Positions 4,041-62,300 of a stretch of 64,000 nucleotides of DNA are shown here, piece after piece (within the stretch, counting starts at the first letter, position 1; each line of letters begins with the position of its first letter). The stretch is from a virus (Duplodnaviria; Caudoviricetes). Under the pieces are notes generated by a model that worked only from the letters and a program-made list of their open reading frames with translations, had not been told where the DNA came from and did not search any database. The position numbers and the translations under genes are program-made. The stretch covers positions 224,001-288,000 of the IMG/VR virus record IMGVR_UViG_3300032030_000005. One strand, 5' to 3'.

Positions 4041-4078
4041 ACATCACCTGAGTACGTGATGTATAAAATAAACTGTTC
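4041..4078 (+). ncRNA. 5'-leader H-type pseudoknot A
   Basis: S1 ACATCAC/GTGATGT, 8-nt loop CTGAGTAC, S2 GAGTA/TGTTC, then AGGAGG. Confidence 0.65.
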
Positions 4079-4100
4079 CATTTTAAGGAGGAAAATTAAA

Positions 4101-5642
4101 ATGAAGGCAAATTATTCAACAGCAACAAAAGTAACAAACAATGAAAAAGAAAGATCAACTAGTCAGTTGATAAACGAAATTAAGGAAAAGTATAGAGGAG
4201 ATGTTTCTGCATGCTCGTTTTTTATATCGAGCTGCAAAGCCATCAAATTTATAGATTTACTTTACATTTCAGAAGGTCGTGTAAGATTTTTTACTTGTCC
4301 TTGTTTGAAACAAGGAAGTAGGAAACGAATTAAAGGAGATAAGGTAGTTCGTTTCCGTCATGAAAACGATATGTTACTCATCGGAGATTCTTCTGTAAGA
4401 GAAATCTCTGAAGCAGAACTCTTAAAGCATACTTTAGAGTATGCAGTGCCATTTGCAATGGCGAAGAGTAGGTTTGTTCCAGTTTTTATAAAAAGCAAAA
4501 AACTGGGATTAGATTTCAGTCAGTTCTTCGACGGAACTGAAACAATAACTGAAGAAAAAATAACAGTTGAAGTTGAATCTGCAGAGGATGAGGCTGCTAC
4601 ACTTGAAGCCGTAGAGACTGAAGATGTAACTGTAACTGAAACAGAAGTCATTACAGCCGAAGAATCTACTCCTACTCCAAAAACAGAAGAAGATCTTCTC
4701 ATTGAAAAGATTATAGATCTTGATGCTAATGTGTTAAATCCTTTAACAAAGTTTATGATCGATAGAATAATGGATATAAGCACATACATTAACGATTCAA
4801 TTATTGAAAAAGTTAAAAGTTTTGATGATTGTTATATCTATAATCAGGGGCTTTGTGAAAAGCAAATAGAAGCAGCTAAACTGGCTGCTTCTACAGCCTC
4901 AGCTTCAGAAAAGATTGATAAGTTCATCATTGCTCTTGCTAAAATTTCAGCTGATCTTAAGAATCAGTCTGAAGAAGCTAAGAATGAAGAATATTTCCTT
5001 AAGAAATCGCTTGAAAAAGCGACAGAAAAGGTTAATAATTTCTATAATGAAATCAATAATGAACTTTCTAGAATCGAAACTGAATGTAGCGAAAAGAAAA
5101 TGGCGGAAAAGAAAGTTGACGATATAATGTCAAATCTCTCTGAATTAGAGAGAGAACTTCTTATGAAATCTCTTGGTTTAAGACCAGAGATAGATGTTGA
5201 CGTAGTAAAAAACCCAACACACATTGTACCATCAACTGAAGAAACTGCGATAGACGGAAGATTTACCATTGTTATGAACGATGGCAACACACGTTCCATC
5301 GATAACAGTTGGTCCGAAATATTGGGCCATCTTCGTCAGGTCGCATTAAAAAGAGAGACTGTTAATATATCAGTCTTTAAATATATTGCGGACCAGATGG
5401 CTTTAGGACTTACTAGAAAAGAGCTTATAGAAGCTCTGGGCAGTCAGCACTACGCTAAACGAGCTCTGGACATATGCTCAGAGCTCGGTCTTTATAAGCT
5501 CGATAGATCTCAGAATGCTGGAAAAAAGCGTTCTCCAGTGGCATCAGCCAAATCTGGAAGAACACTTTCTGAGCGTTCGGAGATCAAAAAGAAGGTAATC
5601 GAAGAAGATATAAAGCAGAAAGCGGAAGCTCTTCATGCTTGA
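4101..5642 (+). CDS. early coiled-coil hypothetical protein
   Basis: RBS AAGGAGG before ATG 4101; acidic linker and coiled-coil region. Confidence 0.75.
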   Translation: MKANYSTATKVTNNEKERSTSQLINEIKEKYRGDVSACSFFISSCKAIKFIDLLYISEGRVRFFTCPCLKQGSRKRIKGDKVVRFRHENDMLLIGDSSVREISEAELLKHTLEYAVPFAMAKSRFVPVFIKSKKLGLDFSQFFDGTETITEEKITVEVESAEDEAATLEAVETEDVTVTETEVITAEESTPTPKTEEDLLIEKIIDLDANVLNPLTKFMIDRIMDISTYINDSIIEKVKSFDDCYIYNQGLCEKQIEAAKLAASTASASEKIDKFIIALAKISADLKNQSEEAKNEEYFLKKSLEKATEKVNNFYNEINNELSRIETECSEKKMAEKKVDDIMSNLSELERELLMKSLGLRPEIDVDVVKNPTHIVPSTEETAIDGRFTIVMNDGNTRSIDNSWSEILGHLRQVALKRETVNISVFKYIADQMALGLTRKELIEALGSQHYAKRALDICSELGLYKLDRSQNAGKKRSPVASAKSGRTLSERSEIKKKVIEEDIKQKAEALHA

Positions 5643-5662
5643 TCTTCATTAATCTTACAAAA

Positions 5663-5700
5663 ATATCACCTGAGTACGTGATGTATAAAATAAACTGCTC
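5663..5700 (+). ncRNA. 5'-leader H-type pseudoknot B (33-bp direct repeat of A)
   Basis: 5665-5697 is identical to 4043-4075; S2 GAGTA/TGCTC. Confidence 0.65.
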
Positions 5701-5719
5701 TTCCGTAGGAGGTTATAAT

Positions 5720-5854
5720 ATGGAAAAGAAAAAAGCATTAGAAATGATAGAAAATATGGAGATCAACCCAGAGCTCAAAGAAAAGCTCATAGAAATCGCT
5801 GATGAACTTGATGAAATATTCGAAAGAATTGACAAGATCGAAGCTTGTCACTAA
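5720..5854 (+). CDS. small hypothetical protein (44 aa)
   Basis: RBS AGGAGG before ATG 5720. Confidence 0.7.
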   Translation: MEKKKALEMIENMEINPELKEKLIEIADELDEIFERIDKIEACH

Positions 5855-5872
5855 ATTCTTTCAAGTTCGGAT

Positions 5873-5910
5873 AAAAACAGCATCCTTCATTCGAGGGATG
5901 CTGTTTTTTT
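5873..5910. terminator. bidirectional terminator
   Basis: AAAAACAGCATCC...GGATGCTGTTTTT between convergent genes. Confidence 0.85.
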
Positions 5911-6534
5911 TTATATTTCTAATATGGAATCATCATAAGTATTATTATTCATATCGATTAATTTATTATATTTAAGTAAAGTTTCTTCAGCTATAAAGTC
6001 TTTATACTTTCCAATAAATGCATTTACATCTCCAAAGATGCTTTCAAGTTTAATAAATATCTTTTCACAATGTACTAATTCATGAGCTGTTTTAGATAGA
6101 TAAACAAGACCTACTTGATTTAATTTATGAAGCTCTAATACTTCATCACATATATCTAATGAAGTAAAATTTTCTCCAGTAAGTATTCTTTTATTTATAC
6201 AAGTTTCTACTATATCATATAATGTAAATGGATAATGATGAAATTCTAATGTTAATCCATCAATATCATCTGAAAGATTACCTAATACAGAACAGTTATG
6301 AATACCTACTTCATTTTTAAGATGTCCTAAATAAGACTTATATTCTTTAGAAGTTCTTATCTGTTTTTCTATATTCTTAATAAAAGCTTTAATTTCTTTA
6401 GCATCTGACCATTCTGTAAAATAAAAACTACCTATAATATTTTTACTATTACCTTTAGTAGCTAATACTACATCATCACCTTTATTTAATGAAATAACAT
6501 TATTCACTTCATTTGGTTTATTAATTTGTTTCAT
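5911..6534 (-). CDS. HNH-like jumbo-phage protein
   Basis: LEFHH...VGLVYLSKTAHELVH beta-beta-alpha-metal-like pattern; late promoter at 6560-6571 (-). Confidence 0.5.
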   Translation of the reverse strand: MKQINKPNEVNNVISLNKGDDVVLATKGNSKNIIGSFYFTEWSDAKEIKAFIKNIEKQIRTSKEYKSYLGHLKNEVGIHNCSVLGNLSDDIDGLTLEFHHYPFTLYDIVETCINKRILTGENFTSLDICDEVLELHKLNQVGLVYLSKTAHELVHCEKIFIKLESIFGDVNAFIGKYKDFIAEETLLKYNKLIDMNNNTYDDSILEI

Positions 6535-6643
6535 ATAAATATTCACTCCTTTATTATAATAACTTGCTGTTTTTAAATATATATTATTTTTGTGACTGTA
6601 TTAAGACAATAAAAAATTTAAGAAAAGGAGGAATACAGTTGTT

Positions 6644-7024
6644 ATGAAATACACATATCCTACAGAAGAACTTATGAACAAAGCTTTCGATCAGGCAGTA
6701 TGTGGTTCTTTTGGAACATTTTTAGATGGTGTTTATCTTAAAGCATGCTATGCAAATGGTTATGGCTTTGAGATTGTAAAACATAAAGGTACGTATGGCT
6801 TAGAGCCGGATCTTTGGGAGCTTTACGTACTTAAAAAAGTAGAAGATCCAGAGGAGTATGATATCGAAACAAGATACACTGCCAATTATGAGACGGATAT
6901 AACTGATGATGTTGTTCCATCATTAACTAATGAGCAGGTAATGCTCGTTATACCATTAATAAGATGGTTAGATGATAGAGGTCAGCTTCCGGAAGGTACA
7001 AACCTTCCACATTTTTTAAAATAA
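6644..7024 (+). CDS. early hypothetical phage protein
   Basis: Early promoter 6580, RBS AAGGAGG. Confidence 0.75.
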   Translation: MKYTYPTEELMNKAFDQAVCGSFGTFLDGVYLKACYANGYGFEIVKHKGTYGLEPDLWELYVLKKVEDPEEYDIETRYTANYETDITDDVVPSLTNEQVMLVIPLIRWLDDRGQLPEGTNLPHFLK

Positions 7025-7028
7025 TAAT

Positions 7029-7068
7029 AAAAGAGAATATACCAAATGGTATATTCTCTTTTTTTTTT
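7029..7068. terminator. bidirectional terminator
   Basis: AAAAGAGAATATACCA/TGGTATATTCTCTTTT. Confidence 0.85.
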
Positions 7069-9748
7069 ATAAAAATCTATCTTTCATTCTGACTTTTGTT
7101 AATTCTAAATTATTATCAATAAGATAATCATGTAAATTATCATTTGGTGTTAATTTACCACTTTTTAAATCGTTATTTAATTGCTTTTTTACAGAAGTTT
7201 GATACATATAATCTTTAGTCATAAAAGGAGTCATAAATCGTCCATTAACACCAAAGTCTTTTGTAGTAGGTTGATATTTATCATCAACTATTATACAATG
7301 TTTCTTTATCATATCAATAGTCATGATAAATTTATCAACTTTTGCATATTTGATAGAATCTTTTCTTATTGTAATACAGTTTGGTGTATTTGAAGAATGC
7401 CCTAATCCTAATTCCATATCACTATCTAATTTAATAGTATAAATATAAAATTCCAATAATTTTTTATCATAGTTATTCAAATTATCTTTTAAATAATTAA
7501 ATACTGATTTAGTTATAATAGGATTTTGAGAGTTTTTACATCCCATATGTGTTATATTACTATCTACTTTTTTTAAAGTTTTTAAAACTTCAAAACATCC
7601 CCATCCAATAGCTGAATTATATTTAGTCCAAGTAAATAAAGAAAAGCCTTCTTCCTGAAATACATTACCAAAATCTAAACCAACAGATTTTAATTCTTTA
7701 TAATAATTTTTAGAAGCATGATAAACTTTTATAGGACTGTTAATGGTTTCATGTAAAGCTCTTCTTACAGATCTTTTAAAATCATACTTTTGTTTATTAA
7801 GATCCTTTATATAATCTCGACTTCGTTTAATTTCTCTAAAGATATCTTCGATTAAAGGTCGTCCGTCTGGTCTATCTCTCTTTATTCTTCTGATACTTGC
7901 CTGTAAATCACTAGTACCCATTATAATTAAAGGAAGTGTTACCGCTTTTTCAGGAGACATTAAACAAATATTACAACCTTCAAATATAAACTTTTTACTT
8001 CTATATTTAGGATTATTTTTAGTATTATCTAATAACCAATCAAAAAATTTAATCCAAAGTTTATCAGCTTCTGAAGAATCATATCTAATTTGCCATGGTA
8101 ATTCAGGATGTTGGTTAATATAATCTAATATTATTCCAGTTCCTCTTATATTAATTAATCTAGATAATAATTTTTCATATTTTTCTTTTGGTCTGGTTAT
8201 TCTTAATAAAAATAAATCTAAATGAGAAACATATGCATCATATTCTTCTCCTAATTTCATAGAATAAGTACTTTTACCATCACCGCTTGACCCAGTAATC
8301 CAAAGAGGATTTCCTTCTCTCCATTGATCCACGTTTATAGCAAAGTTCTTTTCAGGAATAACTAAAGATTCATTATATGTATTGATTAATTCATTATAAT
8401 TATCTCTATTATTTTTACCAAATAATTCCATAGACTTCTGATCGGAAAGCCTTTTTCTTCGATCATCCATAGAATCCCAGTTCTTCATGACTCTTTCAAG
8501 TTCTTCCTTAGAAGGTTCTTTATGTATTAACTCTATACCAGTTTCAGCTCTCCATTTATGAACTGGATCATTTTTAAGCTTTAAATATATATCATTTCCA
8601 TAATTCTTTTTAATATCTTTTAGATTCATAGGTGGTTCATAGTCTTCATGTAACTTTATACCTTTTTGCTTGATAACTTCATCGAATCTAGTCTGTGGGA
8701 AAGGTTTCTCGTCTAATTCTACTTCACCATCATCATTTATATAACCAAAACCATAACACATATCAAAATGGAAATTAACCATCATATCTCCAACTGTATA
8801 TACATTATCTCTTCCAACTAATTCACTGAATGGATCTATTAAGATATTAGTATCTTTATTTAATACTACAGTATGCTCATATTTATCAGCACTTACTGGT
8901 CTATAAGGAAGTTTTTTGTATGATCCAGACTTAGAAGGCTTAGTTTGCTTCCATCCTATAAGCTCTTCATCTCTTGCTATTTCTGGCATTTGTACGAACT
9001 TCTTAATAGCTTCTAGATTTACATCATACATCTCTTTCATTGAAAGATTCTTATATTCTGGATATCGGTTAAAGAATAATTTGATATAGTGTTTATATTT
9101 TTGTACGTCCTTCTTATTATGTTCTAATAATCTATCAAAATCCTTTTTATTAAAGCTATCTATATTTTCTTTATCAAATTGTTCTTTTTTCTTTAACAGT
9201 TCTTCAAGATTTATAGGAGTATGACTATCCGTCCAGCAATCTAAGTGATTTTCTTTTTCTGAATCCATATATACTCTTTCACCATGAATATGACCATGTA
9301 CATTAATCTTAACTTTCTTATATTTCTTAAGCATTAATGGTTTGTGACTAAAGATAATATCTTTATATTGTAATTCATCAAATACATAATTAAATCCTAA
9401 TGATAAATAATAATCATTATCTTTAAAATCATGATTACCTTTAATAAGTATCTTTATACCATTTAATTGATTATAAAAATATCTAATTAAGTTATCATAA
9501 TCATCTGATAACTTTTTATATGAAGTATCACCCATATATATGAATATATCATTAGGCTTTACTTTAGCTTTTTGCTGAATTATTAATCTCTTTAATTCTA
9601 ATTGTGATTGTTTACCTTTTGTATAGGCATCTTTATAAATATGCCAGTCGGTAGCTAACCATATTCTATTATATGGAGTTCTATCTAAAAGACTCTTCAC
9701 GTAGTCTTCTTGACTTACATTTTCATTAAAGAAATCTATATAATCCAT
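7067..9748 (-). CDS. multidomain protein: calcineurin-like phosphoesterase + two unknown domains + P-loop kinase + ADP-ribosyltransferase-like domain; putative virion-packaged polyprotein
   Basis: TDWH, GD, GNHD, SH, HGHIH; GSSGDGKST and FIFEG; KVYHAS; RBS AGAGGTG before MDYIDFFNE. Confidence 0.7.
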   Translation of the reverse strand: MDYIDFFNENVSQEDYVKSLLDRTPYNRIWLATDWHIYKDAYTKGKQSQLELKRLIIQQKAKVKPNDIFIYMGDTSYKKLSDDYDNLIRYFYNQLNGIKILIKGNHDFKDNDYYLSLGFNYVFDELQYKDIIFSHKPLMLKKYKKVKINVHGHIHGERVYMDSEKENHLDCWTDSHTPINLEELLKKKEQFDKENIDSFNKKDFDRLLEHNKKDVQKYKHYIKLFFNRYPEYKNLSMKEMYDVNLEAIKKFVQMPEIARDEELIGWKQTKPSKSGSYKKLPYRPVSADKYEHTVVLNKDTNILIDPFSELVGRDNVYTVGDMMVNFHFDMCYGFGYINDDGEVELDEKPFPQTRFDEVIKQKGIKLHEDYEPPMNLKDIKKNYGNDIYLKLKNDPVHKWRAETGIELIHKEPSKEELERVMKNWDSMDDRRKRLSDQKSMELFGKNNRDNYNELINTYNESLVIPEKNFAINVDQWREGNPLWITGSSGDGKSTYSMKLGEEYDAYVSHLDLFLLRITRPKEKYEKLLSRLINIRGTGIILDYINQHPELPWQIRYDSSEADKLWIKFFDWLLDNTKNNPKYRSKKFIFEGCNICLMSPEKAVTLPLIIMGTSDLQASIRRIKRDRPDGRPLIEDIFREIKRSRDYIKDLNKQKYDFKRSVRRALHETINSPIKVYHASKNYYKELKSVGLDFGNVFQEEGFSLFTWTKYNSAIGWGCFEVLKTLKKVDSNITHMGCKNSQNPIITKSVFNYLKDNLNNYDKKLLEFYIYTIKLDSDMELGLGHSSNTPNCITIRKDSIKYAKVDKFIMTIDMIKKHCIIVDDKYQPTTKDFGVNGRFMTPFMTKDYMYQTSVKKQLNNDLKSGKLTPNDNLHDYLIDNNLELTKVRMKDRFL

Positions 9749-9774
9749 AATATCACCTCTTTTCAATCTTAAGA

Positions 9775-10386
9775 TTAAGACTTGTTAACGGTACTATATA
9801 AATTAGTATCTCTCCACATATCATAATGTCCTTTAGCTTCTGTATCCCAATATTCACCACTACCATGAATATGACCATGTATATTAATATTGTATATAGA
9901 TTGACATACATAAGTTTTAGTAAATCTACGGTAATTCCAAAAATAATTACTATCAACAATAGGACGTTTTGATGTTAGATTTTTATCCCATATGGCTGGT
10001 AGATGAGTGAATACTATATTCTTATAAGTCAAATGATCTACTATATAGATGAATCCACATTCTTTATAATAGTTATCTGATAATATATCATGATTCCCTC
10101 TTACTAATATTTTTTTAATAGGTAAGCTTTTAAAAAAGATTTTAATCTTTTCATTTTGCTCTAGTGTACAGTCTACATGATCAATATCTCCTAAGACTAT
10201 TAGTATATCATCATTTCCTAATTTTTTACATTCATTAAAGAATTTATCCATTTTTACTTTAGTATTAAATGGTTTTTTATTTCTACATTCATTCTTATAG
10301 AAATGTAAATCGGTTGCCATATAAATTTGATTAGGTTTTTCCCCACTAACAAATGTTATGGCATTTTGTAAATCATTGTCTATCAT
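9775..10386 (-). CDS. calcineurin-like metallophosphoesterase
   Basis: TDLH, LGD, GNHD, TH, HGHIH motifs; paralogous to the N-terminal domain of the downstream gene. Confidence 0.85.
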   Translation of the reverse strand: MIDNDLQNAITFVSGEKPNQIYMATDLHFYKNECRNKKPFNTKVKMDKFFNECKKLGNDDILIVLGDIDHVDCTLEQNEKIKIFFKSLPIKKILVRGNHDILSDNYYKECGFIYIVDHLTYKNIVFTHLPAIWDKNLTSKRPIVDSNYFWNYRRFTKTYVCQSIYNINIHGHIHGSGEYWDTEAKGHYDMWRDTNLYSTVNKS

Positions 10387-10473
10387 TCTTATCACTTCCC
10401 TTATTATAAGATAAATATAATTAAAAGTTGTAAACCGTATTAAACGCATATTCTATTTATATATTATAATTGT

Positions 10474-10525
10474 GAATAAGTTAATAAGGTGGGATTAACT
10501 TATTCTAATTAATATTAACACCCAC
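10474..10525 (+). ncRNA. 5'-leader H-type pseudoknot E
   Basis: 12-bp S1 GAATAAGTTAAT/ATTAACTTATTC, 8-nt loop AAGGTGGG, S2 GTGGG/CCCAC. Confidence 0.6.
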
Positions 10526-10551
10526 AATGTTATCTTTAGGAGGATACACAT

Positions 10552-10878
10552 ATGACACAGACAACAAGAAAGATACTTACAAATGCATTTTCTTTACAGA
10601 TGTTAGCAGAACTGAATGCTGACGTTACTGTAAGAGAAATCACACCAGCAGAAGTGCCAGAAGACACAGAGTCAGCAATGGGTCATGCTGACATCGCAGC
10701 AGTCGCTGGAAGTGTCCTCGGACGTGAAATTCCAGTGGTTAGAAGTTCACAGAAGCTCACTGAAACAGATGAGCTTTATGTTGCACAGTTCATGGGAGGA
10801 CGCCTCCCAGAAGGTGCAACGACCCTTCCGGAAGGTTTCAGTATTAAGTGGTTAAAGATTACTGTCAAGTACAGATAA
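10552..10878 (+). CDS. acrIII-1: AcrIII-1 / DUF1874 (STIV B116/YddF-like) cyclic oligoadenylate ring nuclease
   Basis: NAFSLQML, SAMGHADIA (GH motif), RLPEG; about 108 aa. Confidence 0.85.
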   Translation: MTQTTRKILTNAFSLQMLAELNADVTVREITPAEVPEDTESAMGHADIAAVAGSVLGREIPVVRSSQKLTETDELYVAQFMGGRLPEGATTLPEGFSIKWLKITVKYR

Positions 10879-10903
10879 AATAACCACTTAATACTGATCT
10901 TTT

Positions 10904-10946
10904 AATTAAGCACATGGGACTCCCCTTACTGTGTGCTTAATTTTTT
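10904..10946 (+). terminator. intrinsic terminator
   Basis: AATTAAGCACA...TGTGCTTAATT plus T-run. Confidence 0.75.
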
Positions 10947-10992
10947 ACATTATTCGTGTTATTTTTTTTTTCATTATATATTAATAGAAACA

Positions 10993-11005
10993 AACAATGA
11001 GTTAT
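10993..11005 (+). promoter_or_regulatory. late phage promoter AACA-N5-TTAT (representative copy)
   Basis: AACA-N6-TA copies on + at 10993, 12249, 18765, 25641, 28702, 39572, 43245, 49259, 57003, 62733 and on - at 6560-6571, 15656-15667, 39553-39564; matches AR9 late consensus. Confidence 0.75.
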
Positions 11006-11033
11006 TAATTATATAAAGAAAGGATTGATATAT

Positions 11034-12225
11034 ATGAATCAAACTGAAGGATTTATTGTTTGTGAAGAGTTTACAGCTTCTACACCATCTATTTTAGCAG
11101 ATGATAATAAATCTATTGTGTTTGAAGCTACTTTACAAGAAGCTGATGCACCTAATAGAAATAAGCGTATATATGGTAAAGATGTATTATCTGAAGCTTT
11201 AAATAATCCTACTGTTAGAGAAAAGATAGCTCATAAAGCTTTCTATGGTGAGGCTGGACACCCTCTTTCTACAGATATAAAACGCCAAGCATATATAGAT
11301 CAACATAATATAAGTCATATTGTATGTTCTACAAAATGGGAAGGTAATATTCTTAAAGGCATTGTAGAAACAGCACAAACTAGTACTGGTTTTGACATGA
11401 GAGGTTTAATTAGACAAGGTTCACAAGTATCATTTTCATTAAGAGCTCTTGGTAATATTATTAAACCAGATGGTCAATATCAAAGAGTCTTTGGTCCTTT
11501 AATGATCATTTGTTACGATTGGGTCGGCTCTATCATAAGATAAATAATTTGTGGCTCAATTAAAACTCCTTTAATTGCTGGAACGTCCTATAAATGGGAT
11601 AATCAGCAGCCAAGACTTAAAAGAAGACTTCATTCGTAAGATGTCTTTTTTTTTTTAAGTAAGGTTCAACGACTATCGAAACCATAGGTTCTAAAAAGAA
11701 CTGAAGAAGGGAGTAGAGTACCGCCTAAGCGATTGAGGTTCTGGTGTAGAGTAATAATCTAGTAATTCCAGATTAAAGGGAAATGGGGAGCAGCATGTAT
11801 TAGCCATATACATCTGAAGATATAGTCTTATCTATACAGTAATGTATAGCTGTTTAATATAAACGTATATAGTGTAGCGAACTATATAGAAAAGGAATAA
11901 ATGCACAATTCCATCTCATGATAAAGCATATATGGGAAAAATTATTTCTGAAGACTTTAATAGATTAGAACAAAATGGAATTATTACAGAAGGTCTTATT
12001 AACTTTAAAATGGCTGATTTAGCTGAATATGTAATGCAACAGGATAATAAGCTTAGCTGTATTTGTGAATCATTAGGATTTAATATAGATAGTGATTTCT
12101 CTAATGTAGATGTAGATAGACGTAATAAGTTATTATCTATTAAAGAAGGTAATGAAACACTTAAATTATTCTTAAAGAATTCAGTAGTAAATAATATGGA
12201 TAATTATTTCAAGTATAAGTTTTAA
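11034..12225 (+). CDS. prohead core protease (T4 gp21-like); exons 11034-11524 and 11904-12225, 270 aa spliced
   Basis: NRNKRIY, GEAGHP (His), SFSLRALG (Ser); splicing restores YDWV|TIPSH (D-x-V-x-x-P-S) in frame with the 11932 ORF. Confidence 0.9.
11525..11903 (+). ncRNA. group I self-splicing intron, no ORF
   Basis: P4 TGCTG(11576)/CAGCA(11604); P7 GACTA(11671)/TAGTC(11823); P1 exon ATTGGGT with IGS GCTCAAT giving U.G at the 5' splice site; P10 TTGTG/CACAA; terminal G at 11903. Confidence 0.95.
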
Positions 12226-12350
12226 TTGAATATATAGCATAAGTTGATAACAAAAATTTATAATTACTTATTTTAAATTATATTTGTTAATTTAAAATAA
12301 ATTAATATTAATTTATTCTATATAAATATTAAAGAAAGTAGGTATTAATT

Positions 12351-13364
12351 ATGAATTACAGAGATCTTATTTTAGAATCTTATCTCGAAGATAATGATTA
12401 TGAAGCATATGATGAAGAATACGATGATGCATATGATGAATATGATGAAGATGAAGAATATGAAGCATATGACGAAGAGTATGATGATGATGAAGCACTT
12501 GAAGCATACCTTGAAGGTTACTACTATGCATTAGAATCATTAGATGATCGTAGAGCTGACGGTTCTGTAAAGTACTATTCGTATAATAAGAAGGGTAAGC
12601 AAGGTGCTGAAGTTACAAGAAACGTAGATGCTGATGGTAGAGTTTACTATACTAATGCAAAGGGTAAGAGACTTAAGGATGGCGTTTCTGTAAAGGCTGC
12701 TATTAATAAGGGTAAGGGCGAATTCGGCGTTGGTACAGTTACAAGAAGCAAAGCTGCAATTCAGAAGGATATTAAGGATACAGGCAATCGTGTTGCTAGC
12801 GGTGCTTCAAAGAATACTGGTATTGCTAATGCTTCTAGATCACAAGGTAATATTTCTAAGACTGCTGAAACTGCAAGAAATGCTGAGTTTGCTGCTAAGA
12901 ACAGAGAAGATAATCTTAAGAGACAGCACAGAGCTGAAAAGAAAGAACTTCAGAATAGACTTGCTAGAGCTAATCAGGAAATTACTAACTCAAGAGAATA
13001 TGGTTTCAAGTCTGGTGAACGTTCAGGCTATGAAAAGGGTAATACTGCTGGTACTAAGAAGGGCCGTGCTCAGGGTGCAGCTGTTGCCGGTGGTGCAGCT
13101 TTAGCTGTTGCTGGTGGTGTAGCTGCTGCAAAGGCTATTAAGCTTGATAAGGAATATAAGGCTTATACAGCTGCTGGTGGTAAGCTTTCTAAGAAGGAAT
13201 GGTTATCAAAGGGTAAGCCATCACCATCTGTTGTTGAAAAAGCTGTAGCTAAGATCAAGCATGAAGCATATAATGAAATCGCTGATATGGTTTATGAAGA
13301 TGCTTTAAATGAAGGTTATGAACTTGCTATTGCTGAACTTTGTGCTGAAGAAGATTATGAATAA
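12351..13364 (+). CDS. putative internal head/ejected protein with acidic propeptides and glycine-zipper segment
   Basis: MNYRDLILE, acidic N- and C-termini with repeated xLE/xNE, basic core, GAAVAGGAALAVAGGVAAA; late promoter. Confidence 0.65.
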   Translation: MNYRDLILESYLEDNDYEAYDEEYDDAYDEYDEDEEYEAYDEEYDDDEALEAYLEGYYYALESLDDRRADGSVKYYSYNKKGKQGAEVTRNVDADGRVYYTNAKGKRLKDGVSVKAAINKGKGEFGVGTVTRSKAAIQKDIKDTGNRVASGASKNTGIANASRSQGNISKTAETARNAEFAAKNREDNLKRQHRAEKKELQNRLARANQEITNSREYGFKSGERSGYEKGNTAGTKKGRAQGAAVAGGAALAVAGGVAAAKAIKLDKEYKAYTAAGGKLSKKEWLSKGKPSPSVVEKAVAKIKHEAYNEIADMVYEDALNEGYELAIAELCAEEDYE

Positions 13365-13389
13365 TAAATAAAAAAAAAATATATAAAAT

Positions 13390-13428
13390 TTACTCTAAGG
13401 TTTAAATAAACCTTAGAGTAAATTTTTT
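13390..13428 (+). terminator. hairpin terminator
   Basis: TTACTCTAAGGTTTA/TAAACCTTAGAGTAA. Confidence 0.75.
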
Positions 13429-13446
13429 AACGAAAGAAGTGTTAGT

Positions 13447-14406: not shown

Positions 14407-14421
14407 AAAAGGTGAATTGAT

Positions 14422-14979: not shown

Positions 14980-14986
14980 AAATTAA

Positions 14987-15014
14987 TCCCTAAAGACTAT
15001 ATAGTCTTTAGGGA
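14987..15014. repeat. perfect 28-bp palindrome / bidirectional terminator
   Basis: TCCCTAAAGACTATATAGTCTTTAGGGA; identical copy at 61232-61259. Confidence 0.9.
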
Positions 15015-15626: not shown

Positions 15627-15743
15627 TATATGTCACCTCTTGTATATTAATAATATAAAAAGATGTTGATCTAATAATTTATAATTCTAAAAACCGTATC
15701 TAATATATATTCTGAATATATTATAATTGTGAATAAAGAAACA

Positions 15744-15778
15744 TTAAGACCTGATCAAGTCTTAAACAAAAACTGATC
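15744..15778 (+). ncRNA. 5'-leader H-type pseudoknot C
   Basis: S1 TTAAGAC/GTCTTAA, loop CTGATCAA, S2 GATCA/TGATC. Confidence 0.65.
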
Positions 15779-15797
15779 TATTCTAAGGAGGAATAGT

Positions 15798-15830
15798 ATG
15801 GAAAATATTAATATTTCAAAGAAAAAGTAA
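15798..15830 (+). CDS. 10-codon minigene MENINISKKK
   Basis: Early promoter 15717, RBS AAGGAGG, terminator 15824-15862. Confidence 0.45.
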   Translation: MENINISKKK

Positions 15831-15923
15831 TACATACTAATTATAGTATGTATTACTTTTTTACTAAATTTTTTTAAAATATATATTATTTTTTTAGTAA
15901 TTTTTAACCATGGAGGACTTATT

Positions 15924-49210: not shown

Positions 49211-49218
49211 TTAAATAT

Positions 49219-52203: not shown

Positions 52204-52309
52204 TATTTATTTTATCCCATAAAAGATTATTTTTTATGGGATAATTTTATCTATTATAAATATAACTAAAATACTTTATTATTAAATATTTAAAGAAAGG
52301 ATGATATTT

Positions 52310-55500: not shown

Positions 55501-56879
55501 GATTACATATAAATATATCATCTAATCTTAAAAAATTTTTTGATACATGTATAGAGGATGAATGTCATTTAGAGTCTACGGATGGTAGTCAATTTTATAT
55601 CGGATCTGGCAGTTGTTGGTTTATGATGAATAATACTGATGGTACAAGTTCTGGAAATATTTGGTTTGGTATTAATAGAGGACAAAATATAACTCTTCCT
55701 GAAGAAACAAATATATACATACCAATGTATAACAGAGGATCTACATCTATATCTTTTAAATCATTTTATAAGAATATTCCTACTGATCCAAAATATAAAG
55801 ATTATATTACACCATTTGCATTACCAAATAAATTGTTAGAATGTACTGAAGATAGTACTGGAACACTTACTCCTGATAGAATAGTATTTCCAGAAGGTCA
55901 TAAAGTTGTATTGTCATATGCATTTAATAATTTATATAGTGGTAACAATGCTAATATAACTATTGAAAAAGCTCTTAATATACCAGAGATAGTATTATCA
56001 AGTACTATTGAAGAGATCAGAGGTAATATTTTTGGTGTAGCTAAAAAACAAACAAATAATGGACTTTCTAATACATCCGCTATTTGTTATATTAATAATT
56101 TAAAACCATTTAAGATACCTGCTAGTTGTAAGAAATTATGCACTGCAGCGCTTATTGGTGCTGGTGGTTTTATTGGTATTGATTTTAATGATAAACTTGA
56201 ATATATAGGAGACTATGCATTATTCAATTGTGGAAGTATAGTTGCAAACTCAAATACTGATGATATAAAAAATGCCATACTTCCTATAACAGTTCCACCA
56301 TCAGTAACTTATATAGGCGATTATGCATTTGGTAAATGTGGTTATAAGAAAATTGAATTCACTAATGGTAATGCAGTTTACGGTAAATATTTATGTTGGA
56401 ATGCAAACAAATTAGAAGAAGTAATTATTCCAGAAGGTGTTACCGAAATTCCAGATTATGCTTTCTATGGTTGTACTTCTTTAAAAACTGTTAAACTTCC
56501 TAGCACTTTAAAGACTATAGGTATTGGTGCTTTCTATGGTTGTACATCATTAGTATCTATTAATATACCAGACAGTGTAGAAGAATTAAAAAATACATGC
56601 TTCTATGGTTGTACATCATTAGACTTAATCCATATACCAAATTCAATTAAAGTAATAGGTGAAGAAGTTTTTGTTAACTGTAATGCTTTAGATTCTCATG
56701 TATTTGAGTTACCTAATTGTATTGAAAGTATAGCTTCTAATGCTTTCAATTTAAACGGTACAGATACTTCCTCTACAAAAAAGTGTTATATCAAAATAGA
56801 TAAAAGAACTAATAGCGTTATTAATTCACCATTTGACAATGGAAGAAATCTTAATGAAGTAACATGGCTTAGAAACTAA
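52548..56879 (+). CDS. BspA-type leucine-rich repeat (LRR_5) protein
   Basis: Many IPEGVT.IG..AF.GC..L repeats. Confidence 0.9.
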   Translation: MDNEKTIAELLIELKDAKDNIKNALSRKGIEVSNDMTTFADDIDSIEKKVSIPIVLSNGTFTSVTADYNSVTHEYSMPDISFLNCNDFSVTNVELPSEVTILPDNCLKFCQITSIDLSNIKTIGRYALANTAIATIVIPSTVEKVDAYAFDNSGLTSVTYDITSTAVDSRAFTNTVYYTNKMANVTDELVEGNSLIVVKPEAIEEGTYTIPEGVTTIEPGALAELDTLTEVVIPEGVTTIGNNAFEDTGLTSVTLPSTITEIGEDTFAGSSLTGSVTLPVNVETVGEGAFAGTNITQVLTDPENPNEIEFGIDAFKDTPYLNNMGITADGGALAVTSDQITDLTIPSTIKITNVDTLCNTTNNTLTTITLNEPINCIKSYAFANIPNLVSFTCPSVDIVEAHAFDGNTAFTAFNVGSCKEIRDYAFKNTAIETFDIPEGLEYMGNNVFDGNTLLTSFLMDRNKCINKMDNAFDGSAIERLRVKVNTLKNTFITNLTSLTKCEIIIDKFPPNFGALGNLTNLEELVLNCKEIDMNSFNRSSSNTNELSIELINVEKIGPSCFNYAINMPNETFYLPNSLKSIGNDCFKNAIVNNLNIGSGLKEINSFNNLTVLGSEGLTIPSNIKKVGGFMALNTSALTIENGVEEIMSGTIKFEFAFKQSTGFTSLNIPNSVKEVGYGSFSGNTTLEDVSMSESTNLGRDAFSGCTSLNTIIDQTTHTLLFLKIGSTIPDGVIKLGPRSIKSYTGDAPASVTVLGFKCLQSSTGDINFLGNVTRIEDYAFSNSTMTVRFKGNIIPDTTYLEYFSPCLSDLSCQQSDNNKTWNTYVCQYYTDLQTVVEPGQIIAGSLFKVIDNLNREPTIEDPFVVEDPETGDLSCQVPEGVTGIGDMCFMKYQKAVYLPNSVKKIGTYGAVNGNMHLKDPSNSQLEYVGYAAYTSKMSMSNGKAMSGLDVDAFPQTNNLCTFQNDSIIFAASGNKGIEGFKFPKRLHINISSNLKKFFDTCIEDECHLESTDGSQFYIGSGSCWFMMNNTDGTSSGNIWFGINRGQNITLPEETNIYIPMYNRGSTSISFKSFYKNIPTDPKYKDYITPFALPNKLLECTEDSTGTLTPDRIVFPEGHKVVLSYAFNNLYSGNNANITIEKALNIPEIVLSSTIEEIRGNIFGVAKKQTNNGLSNTSAICYINNLKPFKIPASCKKLCTAALIGAGGFIGIDFNDKLEYIGDYALFNCGSIVANSNTDDIKNAILPITVPPSVTYIGDYAFGKCGYKKIEFTNGNAVYGKYLCWNANKLEEVIIPEGVTEIPDYAFYGCTSLKTVKLPSTLKTIGIGAFYGCTSLVSINIPDSVEELKNTCFYGCTSLDLIHIPNSIKVIGEEVFVNCNALDSHVFELPNCIESIASNAFNLNGTDTSSTKKCYIKIDKRTNSVINSPFDNGRNLNEVTWLRN

Positions 56880-56883
56880 AAAA

Positions 56884-56925
56884 AAAAATATCCCTAAAGA
56901 TTATATAATCTTTAGGGATATTTTT
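56884..56925. repeat. perfect 42-bp palindrome / terminator
   Basis: AAAAATATCCCTAAAGATTATATAATCTTTAGGGATATTTTT. Confidence 0.85.
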
Positions 56926-57047
56926 CAAAAGTTATTATTAATCATTAATCTTTTTATAAAATAATTTATAATATTGTATTTTATTAAAAAGCCTTTACCA
57001 AAAACAGCTATTTATAAAATATATTGAAAGAAAGGAAAGTGATATTT

Positions 57048-60000
57048 ATGAGCAAAATTATCAGAAAAGGTAACATCTTAGCTGAAAGTAATGACACTTG
57101 GATGGGTACTAAAGCTGAATATGAAGCTGTTAAAGAAACCATACCTTTTGGTACTAAGATAGTTATTATTGATGGTGATAATAAAGGTGTATTCTTTATG
57201 CCTGAAGAGTCTATTGAACCATTAATTCAAACTGGTACAAAGGGTGATCCAGGTATAGGTATTAGAACTGCTAGTGTAAATCAGCAAGGTAATCTTATAT
57301 TAACATTAACAAATAACACTCAAATAAATGCTGGTAAAGTTGTTGGTGCAGACGGTGCTGATGGTAAAAGTGTAACATCTGTTACAAAAACTAAAACTGA
57401 AGGCTTAGTAGATACATATACTGTTACATATACAGACGGTACTACAAATATCTTCACAGTTTCTAATGGTGCAAATGGACAAGATGGTAAAGGTATAAAA
57501 AGTGTTACAAAAACTGCCACTGTAGAAAATGTAGATACATATACTATTAAATATACAGATAATTCTACAACTACATTTACCGTTACAAATGGTATTAATG
57601 GTGCCACAGGTGCAGCAGGTAAAGGTATAAAGACTATTGCAAAAACAGGTTCATCTGGCAAAATAGATACTTATACTATTACATATACTGATAATGCAAC
57701 AACTACATTCTTAGTTACTAATGGTAGTGATGGTAGAAACGGTAATGATGGTGTTGGTATTGAAAGTATTGCTTTACAAGGTCATTTAGGAAATGTAGAT
57801 ACTTATGTAATTCAATATACTAATGATACTTCAACTACATTCAATGTTACAAATGGTATTAATGGTGTAGACGGTAATGATGGTAGTGATGGTATTTCTA
57901 TTGTTAGTGCTGTTGTTAATGGACAAGGTGAACTTGTCCTCACATTAAGTGATGGTAATACTATTAATGCAGGTGAAGTTAAAGGTAAAGATGGTACTTC
58001 CATTAACATCATAGATAGCTTAAGTAGTTCAAGTCAGCTTCCTTCAACAGGACAAGTTAAAGGTGACTCTTATTTAATCTCTGGTGACTTATGGGTATAT
58101 ACTAATAGTTCTGATCCAGACGCTGTTAATGGTTTTAAAAATGTAGGTAGAATTCAAGGACCTACTGGTAAAGGTATTGTAAGTGCAAATATTACTGATG
58201 GTAAATTATATTTAACATATTCTGATTCAGCAACCCCAGTTTTAATAGGCGATGTTAGAGGTGATACTGGTAGAGGTATTTCAACTGTTGCCAAGACTGG
58301 TTCCGCTGGTTTAATAGATACTTATACTATTACATATACAGATGCAACTACCTCTACATTTACAGTAGTTAATGGTGCTAACGGTGCCACAGGTGCTGCT
58401 GGTAGAAGTGTAACCAATATTGCTAAAACAGGTAGTGCTGGTTTAGTAGATACTTATACTATTACTTATTCAGATAGTACTACATCTACATATACAGTTA
58501 CTAATGGTGCAAATGGTGAAGACGGCCAAGATGGTGTTGGCATTGCTTCTTTTGAAAAGACTGGTTCTGTAGGATTAGTAGATACATACACTATTACATA
58601 TACAGATGGTAATACTGATACATTCACTGTTACTAATGGTGCAGATGGTGAAGATGGTTCTACAGGTGCAACTGGTGTAGGCATTGTTTCTGTAACAAAG
58701 ACTAATACTTCAGGATTAGTAGATACATATACTATTACATTTAGTGATGATACAACTACTACATTCAATATTACTAATGGTGCTAATGGTTCTACAGGTG
58801 CTGCCGGTAGAGGTATTCAAGGTATTGCTAAAACAGGTACGGTATCAAATGTAGATACTTATACAGTAACTCTTACTGATGGCACAACTACAACATTTGA
58901 TGTTACAAACGGTACTAATGGTGCAAACGGAATATCTGTTACAAATGCGACAATTAACTCTAGTGGTGAATTAATCTTCACATTCTCAGCTGGTGATCCT
59001 GTAAATGTAGGACGTGTTGTAGGTAATAACGGTGTATCAATTTCTAGTATAGCAAAGACTGATACTGAAGGCTTAGTAGATACATATACTATTACATTTA
59101 GTGATAGTACAACTACAACATTTAATGTTACTAATGGTGCAAACGGTGCTGCAGGTGCAACTGGTAGAGGTATTCAAGGTATTGCTAAAACAAGTACTAC
59201 TGGTTTAACTGATACATATACTATTACATATACAGATAACACTACATCAACTTATACAGTTGTTAATGGTACTGTAGGTGCTACTGGTAAAGGAATTGCT
59301 GATATTTCTTATACATCAACTTCAGGATTAGAAGATACATATACTATTACATACACAGATGGTGATACTGATACATTTGTAGTTACAAACGGTGCTGCAG
59401 GTGCAACTGGTAGAGGTATTGTTTCTATCACTAATACAGCTACAGAAGGATTAATTGATACATACACAATTGCTTATAGTAATGGTACAACTTCTACATT
59501 CACTGTTACTAATGGTGCTAAAGGTCAAGATGGTGCTAATGGTGCAGATGGTGATGATGGTAGAGGTATTGTTTCTGTTGCTAAAACAAGTACTTCAGGA
59601 TTAGTAGATACATATACTATTACATATAGCGATAGTACTACATCTACATTCACTGTTACTAATGGTGCAGATGGTGCATCAGGTGGTATTGTACAACGTT
59701 ATGTACCAAAGTATGCACACCGTGAAGGAAACGATGTTTATTTTGAAGCAAAGATTGATCCAGGTTGTGATTATGTATTCGATACCACCTCATACACTTG
59801 GACAGGTTTACAACCAAAGGATTCAAATGGCTCTAATACTCGTGGTGAAATAGCTCATGGTCCTAATGATACAAGAGTTGCGTTTACCGCAGCATCAAAT
59901 GAAACTCAATGTCAAATGCGATTCTATCCGGGTGTCGGTGTAGAATTTGATCAAATTGATTGGACAAAGATTTCATTTATTAAAGTCGGTGAAACTGCGG

Positions 60001-61160
60001 CTGAATGTTCAGGTCATAATGCTGCTGATATTGAACGACTTGATGGTTCTGCAGTAATGCCTCCAAAACAATCAACAAATATTATTGATATTCTTGAAGG
60101 AGCTACACAAGCAAATCCTGTTAAGATTACACTTATGGGTGACTCAATTACAAATGGTTACTCTGCAGATAGTGGTAAATCTTGGGCTGCTTTATTAGAA
60201 TCATATATCGAAAGCAAGTATCAGTATGTTACAGTAGTAAATACTGGTGTATCTGGATGGAAGAGTTCAGATGCTGTATCAAATCTTGAAACTGCATTAC
60301 CATCTGGTACAACTGTTGCAATTGCAATGTTTGGTACAAACAACCGTCAAAGCCAAGCATATATGGATGCATTATATGGTGACTACACCACAATGTACAA
60401 TCGTGCTAAGAGTATGGGTGCTAAGTTCATACCAATGTGCTGTACAGCAGAAACATTGGTAAATGAATCAATCACTGCAAAGTATGTTGCAACAATGGAT
60501 GCTGTTGAACGTATTATCGCAAAATGGGCAGTGGATCATAATATGGAAATGATCAACCTTTACGAAGGTTTACTCAAGTACTGTAATTATGATTCGGATA
60601 AGTTTGATAAGCTGTTCAATCAAACAGAAACAACAACTGTCGGTGGTCAAACATATCCATTTCACATTCATCCGAATAATGATGGTCACTACATCATGTA
60701 TCGTTTGATTTGTGAAGCTTTAGGATGCAATGCGCCAGTAGCTCAGTATACAGCACCAGTTGGCGGTGGCGGATCAACAAAATACTTACATAGAATATAT
60801 CTCTATAGAAAAGGATACTATTATGTCGGATTTGATTTATATACAAGTTCAGATACATCATTCCAAGGTGATACTCAGGAAATGTTTAATGCACTTGCTG
60901 CAGAATTCACAGCTCAAAACTTTACTAACTTCTCATGGAGAAGTATTCCTCATGCAACTGGTTGGTATAGAGAAACATCTGATGGTACAGCTATTACAAT
61001 TGGAGCGATATACTATGATGGTACTGATTTCGTTGGTATTCGTGAAGGTGTTTCATTAACAACATTTAATAATGCTACAATCAAGCTCACTAACATGAAA
61101 TCATTCACTACTGCACCAAAGGGTACTATATTTGATAATAATATCATAGCCATTGGTTAA
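57048..61160 (+). CDS. tail fibre with 14 DTY.I.Y.D/collagen-like repeats and an SGNH/GDSL esterase domain
   Basis: GDSIT, GVSG, GTNN, HP blocks; roughly 40-aa repeats at 57360-59680. Confidence 0.8.
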   Translation: MSKIIRKGNILAESNDTWMGTKAEYEAVKETIPFGTKIVIIDGDNKGVFFMPEESIEPLIQTGTKGDPGIGIRTASVNQQGNLILTLTNNTQINAGKVVGADGADGKSVTSVTKTKTEGLVDTYTVTYTDGTTNIFTVSNGANGQDGKGIKSVTKTATVENVDTYTIKYTDNSTTTFTVTNGINGATGAAGKGIKTIAKTGSSGKIDTYTITYTDNATTTFLVTNGSDGRNGNDGVGIESIALQGHLGNVDTYVIQYTNDTSTTFNVTNGINGVDGNDGSDGISIVSAVVNGQGELVLTLSDGNTINAGEVKGKDGTSINIIDSLSSSSQLPSTGQVKGDSYLISGDLWVYTNSSDPDAVNGFKNVGRIQGPTGKGIVSANITDGKLYLTYSDSATPVLIGDVRGDTGRGISTVAKTGSAGLIDTYTITYTDATTSTFTVVNGANGATGAAGRSVTNIAKTGSAGLVDTYTITYSDSTTSTYTVTNGANGEDGQDGVGIASFEKTGSVGLVDTYTITYTDGNTDTFTVTNGADGEDGSTGATGVGIVSVTKTNTSGLVDTYTITFSDDTTTTFNITNGANGSTGAAGRGIQGIAKTGTVSNVDTYTVTLTDGTTTTFDVTNGTNGANGISVTNATINSSGELIFTFSAGDPVNVGRVVGNNGVSISSIAKTDTEGLVDTYTITFSDSTTTTFNVTNGANGAAGATGRGIQGIAKTSTTGLTDTYTITYTDNTTSTYTVVNGTVGATGKGIADISYTSTSGLEDTYTITYTDGDTDTFVVTNGAAGATGRGIVSITNTATEGLIDTYTIAYSNGTTSTFTVTNGAKGQDGANGADGDDGRGIVSVAKTSTSGLVDTYTITYSDSTTSTFTVTNGADGASGGIVQRYVPKYAHREGNDVYFEAKIDPGCDYVFDTTSYTWTGLQPKDSNGSNTRGEIAHGPNDTRVAFTAASNETQCQMRFYPGVGVEFDQIDWTKISFIKVGETAAECSGHNAADIERLDGSAVMPPKQSTNIIDILEGATQANPVKITLMGDSITNGYSADSGKSWAALLESYIESKYQYVTVVNTGVSGWKSSDAVSNLETALPSGTTVAIAMFGTNNRQSQAYMDALYGDYTTMYNRAKSMGAKFIPMCCTAETLVNESITAKYVATMDAVERIIAKWAVDHNMEMINLYEGLLKYCNYDSDKFDKLFNQTETTTVGGQTYPFHIHPNNDGHYIMYRLICEALGCNAPVAQYTAPVGGGGSTKYLHRIYLYRKGYYYVGFDLYTSSDTSFQGDTQEMFNALAAEFTAQNFTNFSWRSIPHATGWYRETSDGTAITIGAIYYDGTDFVGIREGVSLTTFNNATIKLTNMKSFTTAPKGTIFDNNIIAIG

Positions 61161-61230
61161 TGAAGAGGACCTTCAATAGAATTATCTTCTAGATATATTT
61201 ACATTAATAGTTCTTATTTAATCTAAAAAA

Positions 61231-61260
61231 ATCCCTAAAGACTATATAGTCTTTAGGGAT
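61231..61260. repeat. perfect 30-bp palindrome / terminator
   Basis: ATCCCTAAAGACTATATAGTCTTTAGGGAT. Confidence 0.9.
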
Positions 61261-61266
61261 AACTTT

Positions 61267-61607
61267 TTAAGGATAAATTGTTACAAGCTTTTTAATTACT
61301 CGTTTTTCAATTTCTCTTTTTTCAGTTTCTACAACTTGTACCAGTACGATGGTAAGTTCTTTTCCTTTGCTTCCTGGCAGTCTACCAATAGATAGCTTAT
61401 TTTCTTTAAAATTCTTATTTCTAAATAAGAAATCATCAGCTCGCCAGTCTGTATCAAACAATAATTCACTGTATATTGGTAATACTTCTTTAGTCCAAGA
61501 ACCACTCCACTGGAAGTTTTCACTCTTCTTTATAGAACAGAATACATGATGATCTGATTCTACTACTTTGCATACCTAAGATTTCGTATAGTCAAACTAT
61601 TCATCAT
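61267..61607 (-). pseudogene. frameshifted small gene (or -1 programmed frameshift)
   Basis: ATG 61607 gives MMNSLTIRNLRYAK*; the -1 frame is open from about 61575 to 61267. Confidence 0.45.
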
Positions 61608-62125
61608 ATTAATTTCTCCGTTATAGTTTCAAATAATCCTTTACTTCTAAACATTTCAAAGTATTGAGTTAAAAGATTTTTTCTTTTTTCATCATCTTTT
61701 ATATTAAGTAAAGGTATACAAAAACGCTTAAAATGTTCAGCATACCAATCTGGTTGATCCTCAAATTTATTTGGATCAAAATTTTCTAATAGTTCATAAC
61801 CTCGTTTACTTGCATCTCCATCACCTATCATATCTTTAAGTTTTTCAATATGATCTAGGTCTTTTACATACACATCCCATTCCGCTAGGAAATATGGAAA
61901 TGCAAAATTATTGCATTCTGGATTATTAATTAATTCATCCATATGATTAGAGATGCAGTTTGCAAAATCATCATCATTAAAATCTTCATCATCAAAGATT
62001 TTATAATATTCATCCGTTAATCTTTTATCATCTGGTTTATATACAGATAATGCCGCTATTTTAATTTTAGCAGAATAATCCATAGGTGTATCTCCACCCA
62101 TAAAATGACCGCTCCAGTATCCCAT
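61604..62125 (-). CDS. early hypothetical protein
   Basis: RBS AAGGAGG; early promoter 62191. Confidence 0.75.
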   Translation of the reverse strand: MGYWSGHFMGGDTPMDYSAKIKIAALSVYKPDDKRLTDEYYKIFDDEDFNDDDFANCISNHMDELINNPECNNFAFPYFLAEWDVYVKDLDHIEKLKDMIGDGDASKRGYELLENFDPNKFEDQPDWYAEHFKRFCIPLLNIKDDEKRKNLLTQYFEMFRSKGLFETITEKLI

Positions 62126-62264
62126 AATAAAAGTCCTCCTTTAATATAATTATTTTCTTGGGATCATAGAAATAATATTTCTACATGTATATAATATATA
62201 TGTGAAAACCGTATCAAATGTAGATATTGAATATATATTATAATTGTGTAAAATAGAAACATTA

Positions 62265-62300
62265 AGTGACATGGACAGGTCACTATAATAAAAGGTCCAT
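62265..62300 (+). ncRNA. 5'-leader H-type pseudoknot D
   Basis: S1 AGTGAC/GTCACT, loop ATGGACAG, S2 TGGAC/GTCCA. Confidence 0.65.

Follow-up and report, generated by a model that had tools for sequence, protein, structure and literature searches.

At least seven small early genes of an uncultured rumen phage (27% GC), unrelated to one another, are predicted to carry the same knotted RNA fold just 5' of the ribosome-binding site (RBS). The window analysed here is a stretch of 64,000 nucleotides (nt), bases 224001-288000 of a 305,865-bp IMG/VR virus record. The record is that of an AR9-like jumbo phage, encoding pieces of a split multisubunit RNA polymerase (RNAP) and a divergent family B DNA polymerase. 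We find one homologous leader family of eight sequences, comprising four copies in the window (4041, 5663, 15744 and 62265), three further copies elsewhere in the genome, at 68891(+), 298108(+) and 115709(-), and a metagenome homologue, L154. Compensating changes across these sequences argue that the element is an RNA structure under selection, and the pseudoknot itself is very probably real. Among the functions considered, a role linked to translation would fit best: the knot may be a constitutive, cis-acting module for translation initiation and message stability, to which we give a probability of about 0.45.

A family of leader pseudoknots and its compensating changes

Each copy can be drawn as an H-type pseudoknot, in which a first stem (S1, 5-7 base pairs) closes an 8-nt loop and a second stem (S2, 4-6 bp) pairs that loop with a downstream tail. 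The connecting segments are short (L1 1-2 nt; L2 one or two bases, variably C, A or G), and the linker L3 comprises 8-11 nt, 60-75% of them A. In every one of the eight copies, 6-9 nt separate the 3' end of S2 from GGAGG, whereas the distance from the 5' end varies; six copies have the start of S1 between +14 and +24 of the predicted transcript (13-23 nt from +1) and L154 at about 45 nt, while copy 5663 is internal. Copy 4041 combines S1 ACATCAC/GTGATGT and the loop CTGAGTAC with the tail TGTTC, which includes two G.U pairs; copy 5663 has S1 ATATCAC/GTGATGT and the tail TGCTC. The stems of copy 15744 are TTAAGAC/GTCTTAA and GATCA/TGATC, and those of copy 62265 are AGTGAC/GTCACT and TGGAC/GTCCA. 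A first-pass annotation of the window had listed a stem, an 8-nt loop, an A-rich linker, a loop-complementary 5-mer and AGGAGG at five sites, these four and 10474, and all of these parts were recovered where it had placed them.

Both helices are maintained through sequence change. In an alignment of the eight sequences (A3), 92.7% of cells pair overall; S1 is paired in 92.9% of cells with changes on both sides in five of its seven pairs, and S2 in 92.5% with changes on both sides in four of five. Pairing falls to 21-46% when the 3' partners are slid by one to three columns, none of 500 shuffles matches the observed pairing or covariation score, and permutation of cognate against non-cognate loops and tails gives p ~1e-4. 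As a control, we collected 110 phage sites that are unrelated but have this linker, RBS and ATG in common with the family. Eighteen of these carry an 8-nt-loop hairpin upstream, and in the S2 register they reach a mean of 1.5 of 5 pairs, with 5/5 in none.

Individual comparisons illustrate how pairing is retained. Copy 15744 and the copy at genome 115709 (G115709) have a 5-bp S1 core in common (AAGAC/GTCTT), and their S2 helices read GATCA/TGATC and AGATA/TATCT, respectively; four pairs differ and all four are compensated. Between 62265 and the copy at genome 298108 (G298108), one S2 pair has changed from G-C to A-U, again with compensation. Within the series formed by 4041, 5663 and L154, a G.U pair becomes G-C at one position, and U.G in 5663 becomes C-G in L154 at another. 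Moreover, five G.U cells would be A.C mismatches if read from the opposite strand, and such sense-only pairs fit an RNA of the sense strand. While the helices vary, the junction nucleotides are invariant: the A-C closing S1, the U in L1, the A-U end pair of S2, the G-U that starts the 3' arm of S1, and the adenines of L3. The covariation of both stems proposed in the first-pass annotation is found across eight copies, L154 included.

Two less specific searches were set aside. A generic scan for a hairpin, a 5-nt complement and an RBS returned 186 matches in the genome at 27% GC and so does not discriminate; architecture alone proves nothing, and it is the aligned family that carries the evidence. 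Loop/tail complementarity at free positions, with G.U allowed, gave a weak signal and was replaced by the fixed-register tests.

To catalogue further members, a covariance model (R1) was built on seven copies with S1 only, the S2 columns lying outside the model. R1 recovers exactly those seven copies genome-wide at 64-70 bits, with everything else below 25 bits. L154 is the one true homologue in a pattern search of 241 million metagenome records, in which the pattern was constrained only at the closing bases of S1, at three conserved positions of the loop (C20, U21, A26), in the linker and at the RBS. Pattern scans of viral contigs and species genomes yielded no further members, and R1 returned only noise on eleven related or large phage records (G001-G011, including the complete 265-kb G003). 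Homologues of the cargo proteins exist (P0002-P0009, 94-36% identical), and a search for orthologous loci through the 513-amino-acid (aa) cargo found no relative in viral or genome contigs. A pattern combining the promoter with the GAAACAT box described below gave only chance matches in AT-rich viral contigs and was discarded as a source of homologues. Rfam 15, a search of which the first-pass annotation had suggested, offers no match for the element: the whole window at gathering score returned Intron_gpI only, and four leaders at a permissive E<=10 gave only noise, below 22 bits.

Early-promoter cassettes and a third helix

The early promoter of Bacillus phage AR9, recognised by the virion RNAP, has the consensus AAATATATATTAT-N6-G(+1) (PMC5312081). 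Intergenic regions of the present record carry TATATTAT-N6-G, which matches this AR9 type. The motif precedes four of the window sites (4041, 10474, 15744 and 62265), and GAAACATT is common to three of them, as the first-pass annotation had also read. The transcript starts at 4021, 10474, 15731 and 62248 are predicted from the AR9 consensus and unmapped. An upstream promoter element, approximately AACYGTAWT, is found at a fixed 25-27 nt 5' of TATATTAT in 9 of 69 early promoters, against ~1.7 expected. It is present at six of the seven promoter-bearing sites (the six promoter-carrying family copies and look-alike 10474), with 4041 as the exception; the nine occurrences fall in five family cassettes, look-alike 10474, two non-coding early units and one short-leader gene. 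Downstream of the promoter, a GAAACAT box lies at +7 to +10 in five copies, reads GAAATAT in a sixth, and is also found in one knot-less early leader.

The usual cassette thus runs from the upstream promoter element and AR9-type early promoter through the GAAACAT box, the knot, and a third helix with the Shine-Dalgarno sequence (SD) to a small open reading frame (ORF) and a terminator. In the promoter-bearing cassettes, which exclude the internal copy 5663, the ORF encodes 10-513 aa and the terminator is a hairpin with a U-run. The eight family cargos (10-513 codons) are mutually unrelated orphans; no Pfam or PHROG function was found for the cargo proteins, except for a weak DUF1874-like match of the 10474 cargo. 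The 15744 cassette (window 15731-15860) has only a 10-codon ORF (MENINISKKK) followed by the terminator; it may represent a cassette in decay, encode a micropeptide or serve as a small RNA unit. Copy 5663 has no promoter and begins 21 nt 3' of the stop codon of a 513-aa ORF. A frameshift or readthrough signal was considered for this copy and rejected, as the knot begins past the stop codon and all other copies lie in 5' untranslated regions (UTRs).

The third helix, P3, directly follows S2, with no gap in most copies, and places the SD in its loop and the AUG in its 3' arm. Its stems vary (CAUUUUAA/UUAAAAUG, UUCCGUA/UAUGGAA, CCAUAA/UUAUGG, GCCAUA/UAUGGC and CAUAAUAA/UUAUUAUG). With the SD forced unpaired, the energy of P3 lies between -5.5 and -9.9 kcal/mol in five of the eight copies, compared with a mean of -1.57 +/- 1.83 for 67 other SD-ATG gene starts of the genome. 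In four copies, the partition function gives probabilities of 0.01-0.06 for an unpaired AUG and 0.65-0.98 for an unpaired SD. This helix, which displays the SD and closes the AUG, had been missed in the first-pass annotation, as had the copies outside the window and the look-alike status of 10474. L154 differs in two local features: its SD pairs with a CUCCCUU tract overlapping the S2 tail, and a separate 10-bp hairpin stands at its predicted +1 (L154:3523-3546) besides the family knot.

Table 1. Positions of the pseudoknot copies, their look-alike and associated promoter and leader elements (window coordinates unless stated).
Feature	Position	Strand	Details
Early promoter TATATTAT-N6-G	4007..4021	+	predicted +1 at 4021; from sequence and the PMC5312081 consensus
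GAAACAT box	4028..4034	+	+8 of the transcript of copy 4041
Pseudoknot copy 1	4041..4078	+	S1 4041-4047/4056-4062; loop 4048-4055; A-rich L3 4063-4073; S2 4050-4054/4074-4078; R1 70.3 bits
P3 hairpin of copy 1	4079..4103	+	8-bp stem CATTTTAA/TTAAAATG; SD in loop; AUG 4101-4103 in 3' arm; P(AUG unpaired) 0.02
Pseudoknot copy 2	5663..5725	+	S1 5663-5669/5678-5684; S2 5672-5676/5696-5700; P3 5701-5707/5719-5725; AUG 5720; R1 66.8 bits
Look-alike, architecture only	10474..10525	+	12-bp hairpin from predicted +1; 8-nt loop AAGGTGGG; 15-nt linker; CCCAC 10521-10525
Cassette with pseudoknot copy 3	15717..15800	+	promoter 15717-15724; +1 15731; S1 15744-15750/15759-15765; S2 15753-15757/15774-15778; SD hairpin 15778-15796; AUG 15798; R1 70.5 bits
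Cassette with pseudoknot copy 4	62234..62322	+	promoter 62234-62241; +1 62248; S1 62265-62270/62279-62284; S2 62272-62276/62295-62299; P3 62301-62306/62317-62322; AUG 62319; R1 65.3 bits
Metagenome homologue L154	3555-3623 of a 6.5-kb contig		contig 37% GC, unrelated to the phage; own AR9-type promoter; R1 50.9 bits
AACYGTAWT element, 5' of TATATTAT	window 10460, 15717, 62234, 63460; genome 68855, 298080, 150330(-), 115744(-), 52731(-)		

Site 10474, other transcript-start hairpins and RNA contigs

The single covarying H-type family claimed in the first-pass annotation stands for four of its five sites, now joined by four further copies, and does not extend to 10474. This site is not homologous to the other four, judging from its sequence, and is an architectural look-alike only. 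It is not matched by R1 and has no sequence in common with the family, and the chance of finding any loop-complementary 5-mer in its tail is ~0.06, which is not significant alone. A second candidate of the same +1 type, G190799, has a similar layout, with no alignment between the two. Homology of 10474 with G190799 or with leaders of G003 was considered and is unsupported; 10474 and G190799 are unproven candidates on architecture only. The 10474 cargo (window 10552-10878), a protein of 108 aa, has a match to phrog_5063 and a weak STIV B116-like/DUF1874 match, the latter below cut-off at E 4e-4. It is possibly an AcrIII-1-type ring nuclease, and so an early anti-CRISPR candidate.

Hairpins at the predicted +1 are widespread, opening many early transcripts of the phage and most of those of G003. 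Examples from G003 (L137-L150) include those at promoters 34475, 98872, 194971(-) and 202328. Further families of repeated leaders or RNAs occur in G003, of the GTTTGTATGTTCCC type and the GGTGGCGGAAAG type, in which hairpin loops match downstream tails. Outside the window, genome 150331(-) and 53070(-) are early-promoter units that lack an ORF and open with long +1 hairpins. In the former, CACTGTC lies nine bases past the stem and is complementary to the loop GACAGTG, making a candidate 7-bp pseudoknot.

The region is partly covered by sheep and bovine rumen metatranscriptome contigs, which establish presence in RNA libraries only. A bovine variant of copy 5663 carries a 2-nt deletion in the L3 linker, with S1 and S2 unchanged among the differences listed and 92 further differences beyond those; the deletion lends weak support to the idea that linker length may be tolerated. 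Elsewhere in the window, the Rfam-detected group I intron at 11481-11903 (75 bits) interrupts the gene for the prohead core protease (Peptidase_S77) and is spliced out in vivo, as indicated by RNA contigs of two studies in which 11524 is joined to 11904. Within the minus-strand gene for an 899-aa metallophosphatase, RNA contigs from bovine rumen that represent a related strain have 6 letters in place of 282 nt at 8369-8650 (94 codons, in frame), an insertion or deletion specific to the strain.

Possible functions and known counterparts

The distance of the knot from the SD is fixed and that from the 5' end variable, one copy is internal, and L154 has its own +1 hairpin; the element is therefore tied to the ribosome-binding region and not to the RNA end. 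In our model, the knot would fold the A/U-rich leader into a compact body, probably stacked on P3. The stacked P3 could hold the SD single-stranded for docking of the 30S subunit, while the closed AUG would limit the rate of initiation. With fewer single-stranded A/U stretches open to host RNases, early accessory mRNAs might be translated at a set level and be longer-lived. The knot would then act constitutively, and not as a sensor, a cap at the 5' end or a riboswitch.

Several points weigh against this proposal. The family comprises only eight sequences, seven of them paralogues in one genome, which leaves few independent events, and each multi-base compensation could be a single template-switch event. 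S2 is marginal, with duplex energies of +1.0 to -6.8 kcal/mol and just 4 bp in two copies, and the z-scores of the nested folds are modest at -0.9 to -2.4, apart from a single +0.95. G115709 and 10474 have a weak P3 or none, and the L154 SD is paired instead of displayed. The element is absent from the closest complete relative, G003 (RNAP ~70% identical), and from AR9 itself, in which early leaders are short and lack structure. The RNA data consist of contigs, which carry no information on 5' ends, strand or level, and parts that lack coverage are left uninterpreted. When the S2 strands are blocked in the fold model to mimic the knot, exposure of the SD and AUG shifts inconsistently, so that secondary structure alone provides no mechanism joining S2 to the RBS. 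A switch model in which S2 controls SD or AUG exposure was rejected on this ground. Pairing between cognate 5' and 3' UTRs of the cassettes gave no signal.

The invariant junction nucleotides would also suit a binding partner. The knot could be an operator for a trans-acting phage protein or host factor that represses or activates translation of the early orphan set jointly, for instance in post-early shut-off. Such a partner could stabilise the marginal S2, and leader pseudoknots do serve as operators for T4 gp32 and E. coli S15 (PMC3014915). We nevertheless regard this as unlikely: conservation of junction nucleotides between varying helices is equally explained by tertiary contacts (A-minor, base triples) or by descent from recent paralogues, no candidate binding protein has been identified, and with unrelated cargos the control cannot be autogenous. 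It is distinctly improbable that the knot is the common operator of an early-gene regulon, in which a phage protein, or an ion or metabolite that changes during infection, would lock or melt S2 and switch translation of the accessory early genes together. Were this true, minimal regulatory pseudoknots of a new class would serve temporal control in viruses equipped with an RNA polymerase of their own.

Stability could also be the sole output, with the knot acting as a roadblock to a 5'-3' exonuclease of the RNase J1 type or as a cover for RNase Y sites, and having no direct effect on initiation. 5' structures and ribosomes at strong SDs stabilise Firmicute mRNAs (PMC3997798; PMC5737220), the widespread +1 hairpins of the phage and G003 suggest that RNA protection is a general concern, and the internal copy 5663 could protect a downstream cistron after cleavage. 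However, the family copies have 13-23 unpaired nt at their predicted 5' ends, L154 has a +1 hairpin apart from the knot, several copies have a weak S2, and a roadblock needs no fixed spacing to the SD. The block to RNase J envisaged in the first-pass annotation is weakened by the same features, together with the internal position of 5663, and a purely protective role seems rather improbable.

Less probable again is that the repeat has no RNA function and is the front end of a cassette for recombination or shuffling, the complementarity being a by-product of inverted-repeat mutation. The whole front end is indeed repeated before unrelated orphan genes that end in terminators, a layout resembling that of the mobile PeSL cassettes (PMC2839356). 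Recombination leaves unexplained, however, both the two interleaved helices that stay paired despite sequence change and the sense-only G.U pairs, and the flanking leader sequence diverges without such constraint. A small riboswitch sensing a ligand or ion is highly improbable: the size class and topology are those of preQ1-I, and a ligand might lock the marginal S2 at the conserved junction, but no Rfam riboswitch matches even at E<=10, L2 is short and variable, S2 overlaps neither the SD nor a terminator, locking S2 does not consistently alter SD or AUG exposure in the fold model, and the cargo genes have no common pathway. A decoy RNA, also raised in the first-pass annotation, finds no support.

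Early genes of AR9-type jumbo phages are transcribed by a polymerase that the phage injects, and the unusual length of their 5' UTRs has been remarked on without explanation (PMC5312081). That many orphan early genes carry a covarying, portable leader beside the RBS suggests that the takeover programme has a post-transcriptional level as well. The element would also offer a compact RNA part (~40-65 nt) for studying SD-adjacent pseudoknots, initiation and decay in Firmicutes, and is a candidate new Rfam family if more members are found.

Known systems resemble the element in part. The Firmicute 5' stabilisers (aprE, ermC, SP82, hbs) likewise combine leader structure with a strong SD near the start of a message in low-GC Gram-positive hosts (PMC3997798, PMC5737220). 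They work at the 5' end or no more than a few nt from it, or else via a stalled or initiating ribosome, whereas the family copies lie 13-23 nt away with one internal; only look-alike 10474, from its predicted and unmapped +1, occupies the 5'-terminal position. The PeSL (promoter-early stem-loop) cassettes of T4-type phages similarly flank small orphan early genes of a large genome with a repeated early promoter front end and a terminator (PMC2839356). They pair sigma70-like host promoters with terminator hairpins at the level of DNA and transcription (PMC2839356), and recombination products or mini-circles are a further mark of them, whereas the rumen phage joins an AR9 virion-RNAP promoter to a covarying leader RNA.

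Among pseudoknots, preQ1-I (RF00522) shares the minimal H-type topology, P1 and P2 both being short and the 3' tail rich in A; in preQ1-I this tail crosses the minor groove of P1. The riboswitch differs in its conserved ligand-pairing C, fixed loop bases and an L2 of several nt, where the phage L2 is 1-2 variable nt. RF00522 was not reported for the phage leaders even at E<=10. Unlike the preQ1-I P2, the phage S2 ends 6-9 nt before GGAGG with no overlap of the SD or an expression platform, and the cargos include no queuosine or preQ1 genes. The gene 32 messages of T4, T2 and RB69 also have an H-type leader pseudoknot upstream of the RBS (PMC3014915, PMC535899), with coaxial stacking presumed in the phage copies. 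Placed 67 nt 5' of the start codon, the gene 32 knot serves as the nucleation site from which gp32 binds along an extended A/U tract devoid of structure, as autogenous control of one single-stranded DNA-binding protein (SSB) gene (PMC3014915, PMC535899). Here the UUAAA-repeat tract between knot and RBS is replaced by 6-9 nt, mostly the 5' arm of P3, and the knot adjoins a hairpin and precedes eight different orphan cargos, none an SSB; the analogy drawn in the first-pass annotation hence fails on its defining features.

By analogy, the activator pseudoknot of IncI-alpha repZ appears to be the functionally closest known system. As summarised in PMC8383071 from Asano & Mizobuchi 1998, the repZ loop finds its partner immediately 5' of the RBS, in a knot tied to translation initiation; in the phage leaders too, the pairing partner of the loop is situated just 5' of the SD. 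According to the same summary, the repZ knot serves a single gene, depends on translation of a leader peptide and is blocked by an antisense RNA. The promoter-proximal phage copies have no ORF upstream, and 5663 follows the stop codon of one, with which it might be coupled. The loop sequences differ between phage copies, which argues against one common antisense RNA. In comparison with this single-gene system, the phage element is a portable leader present in multiple copies.

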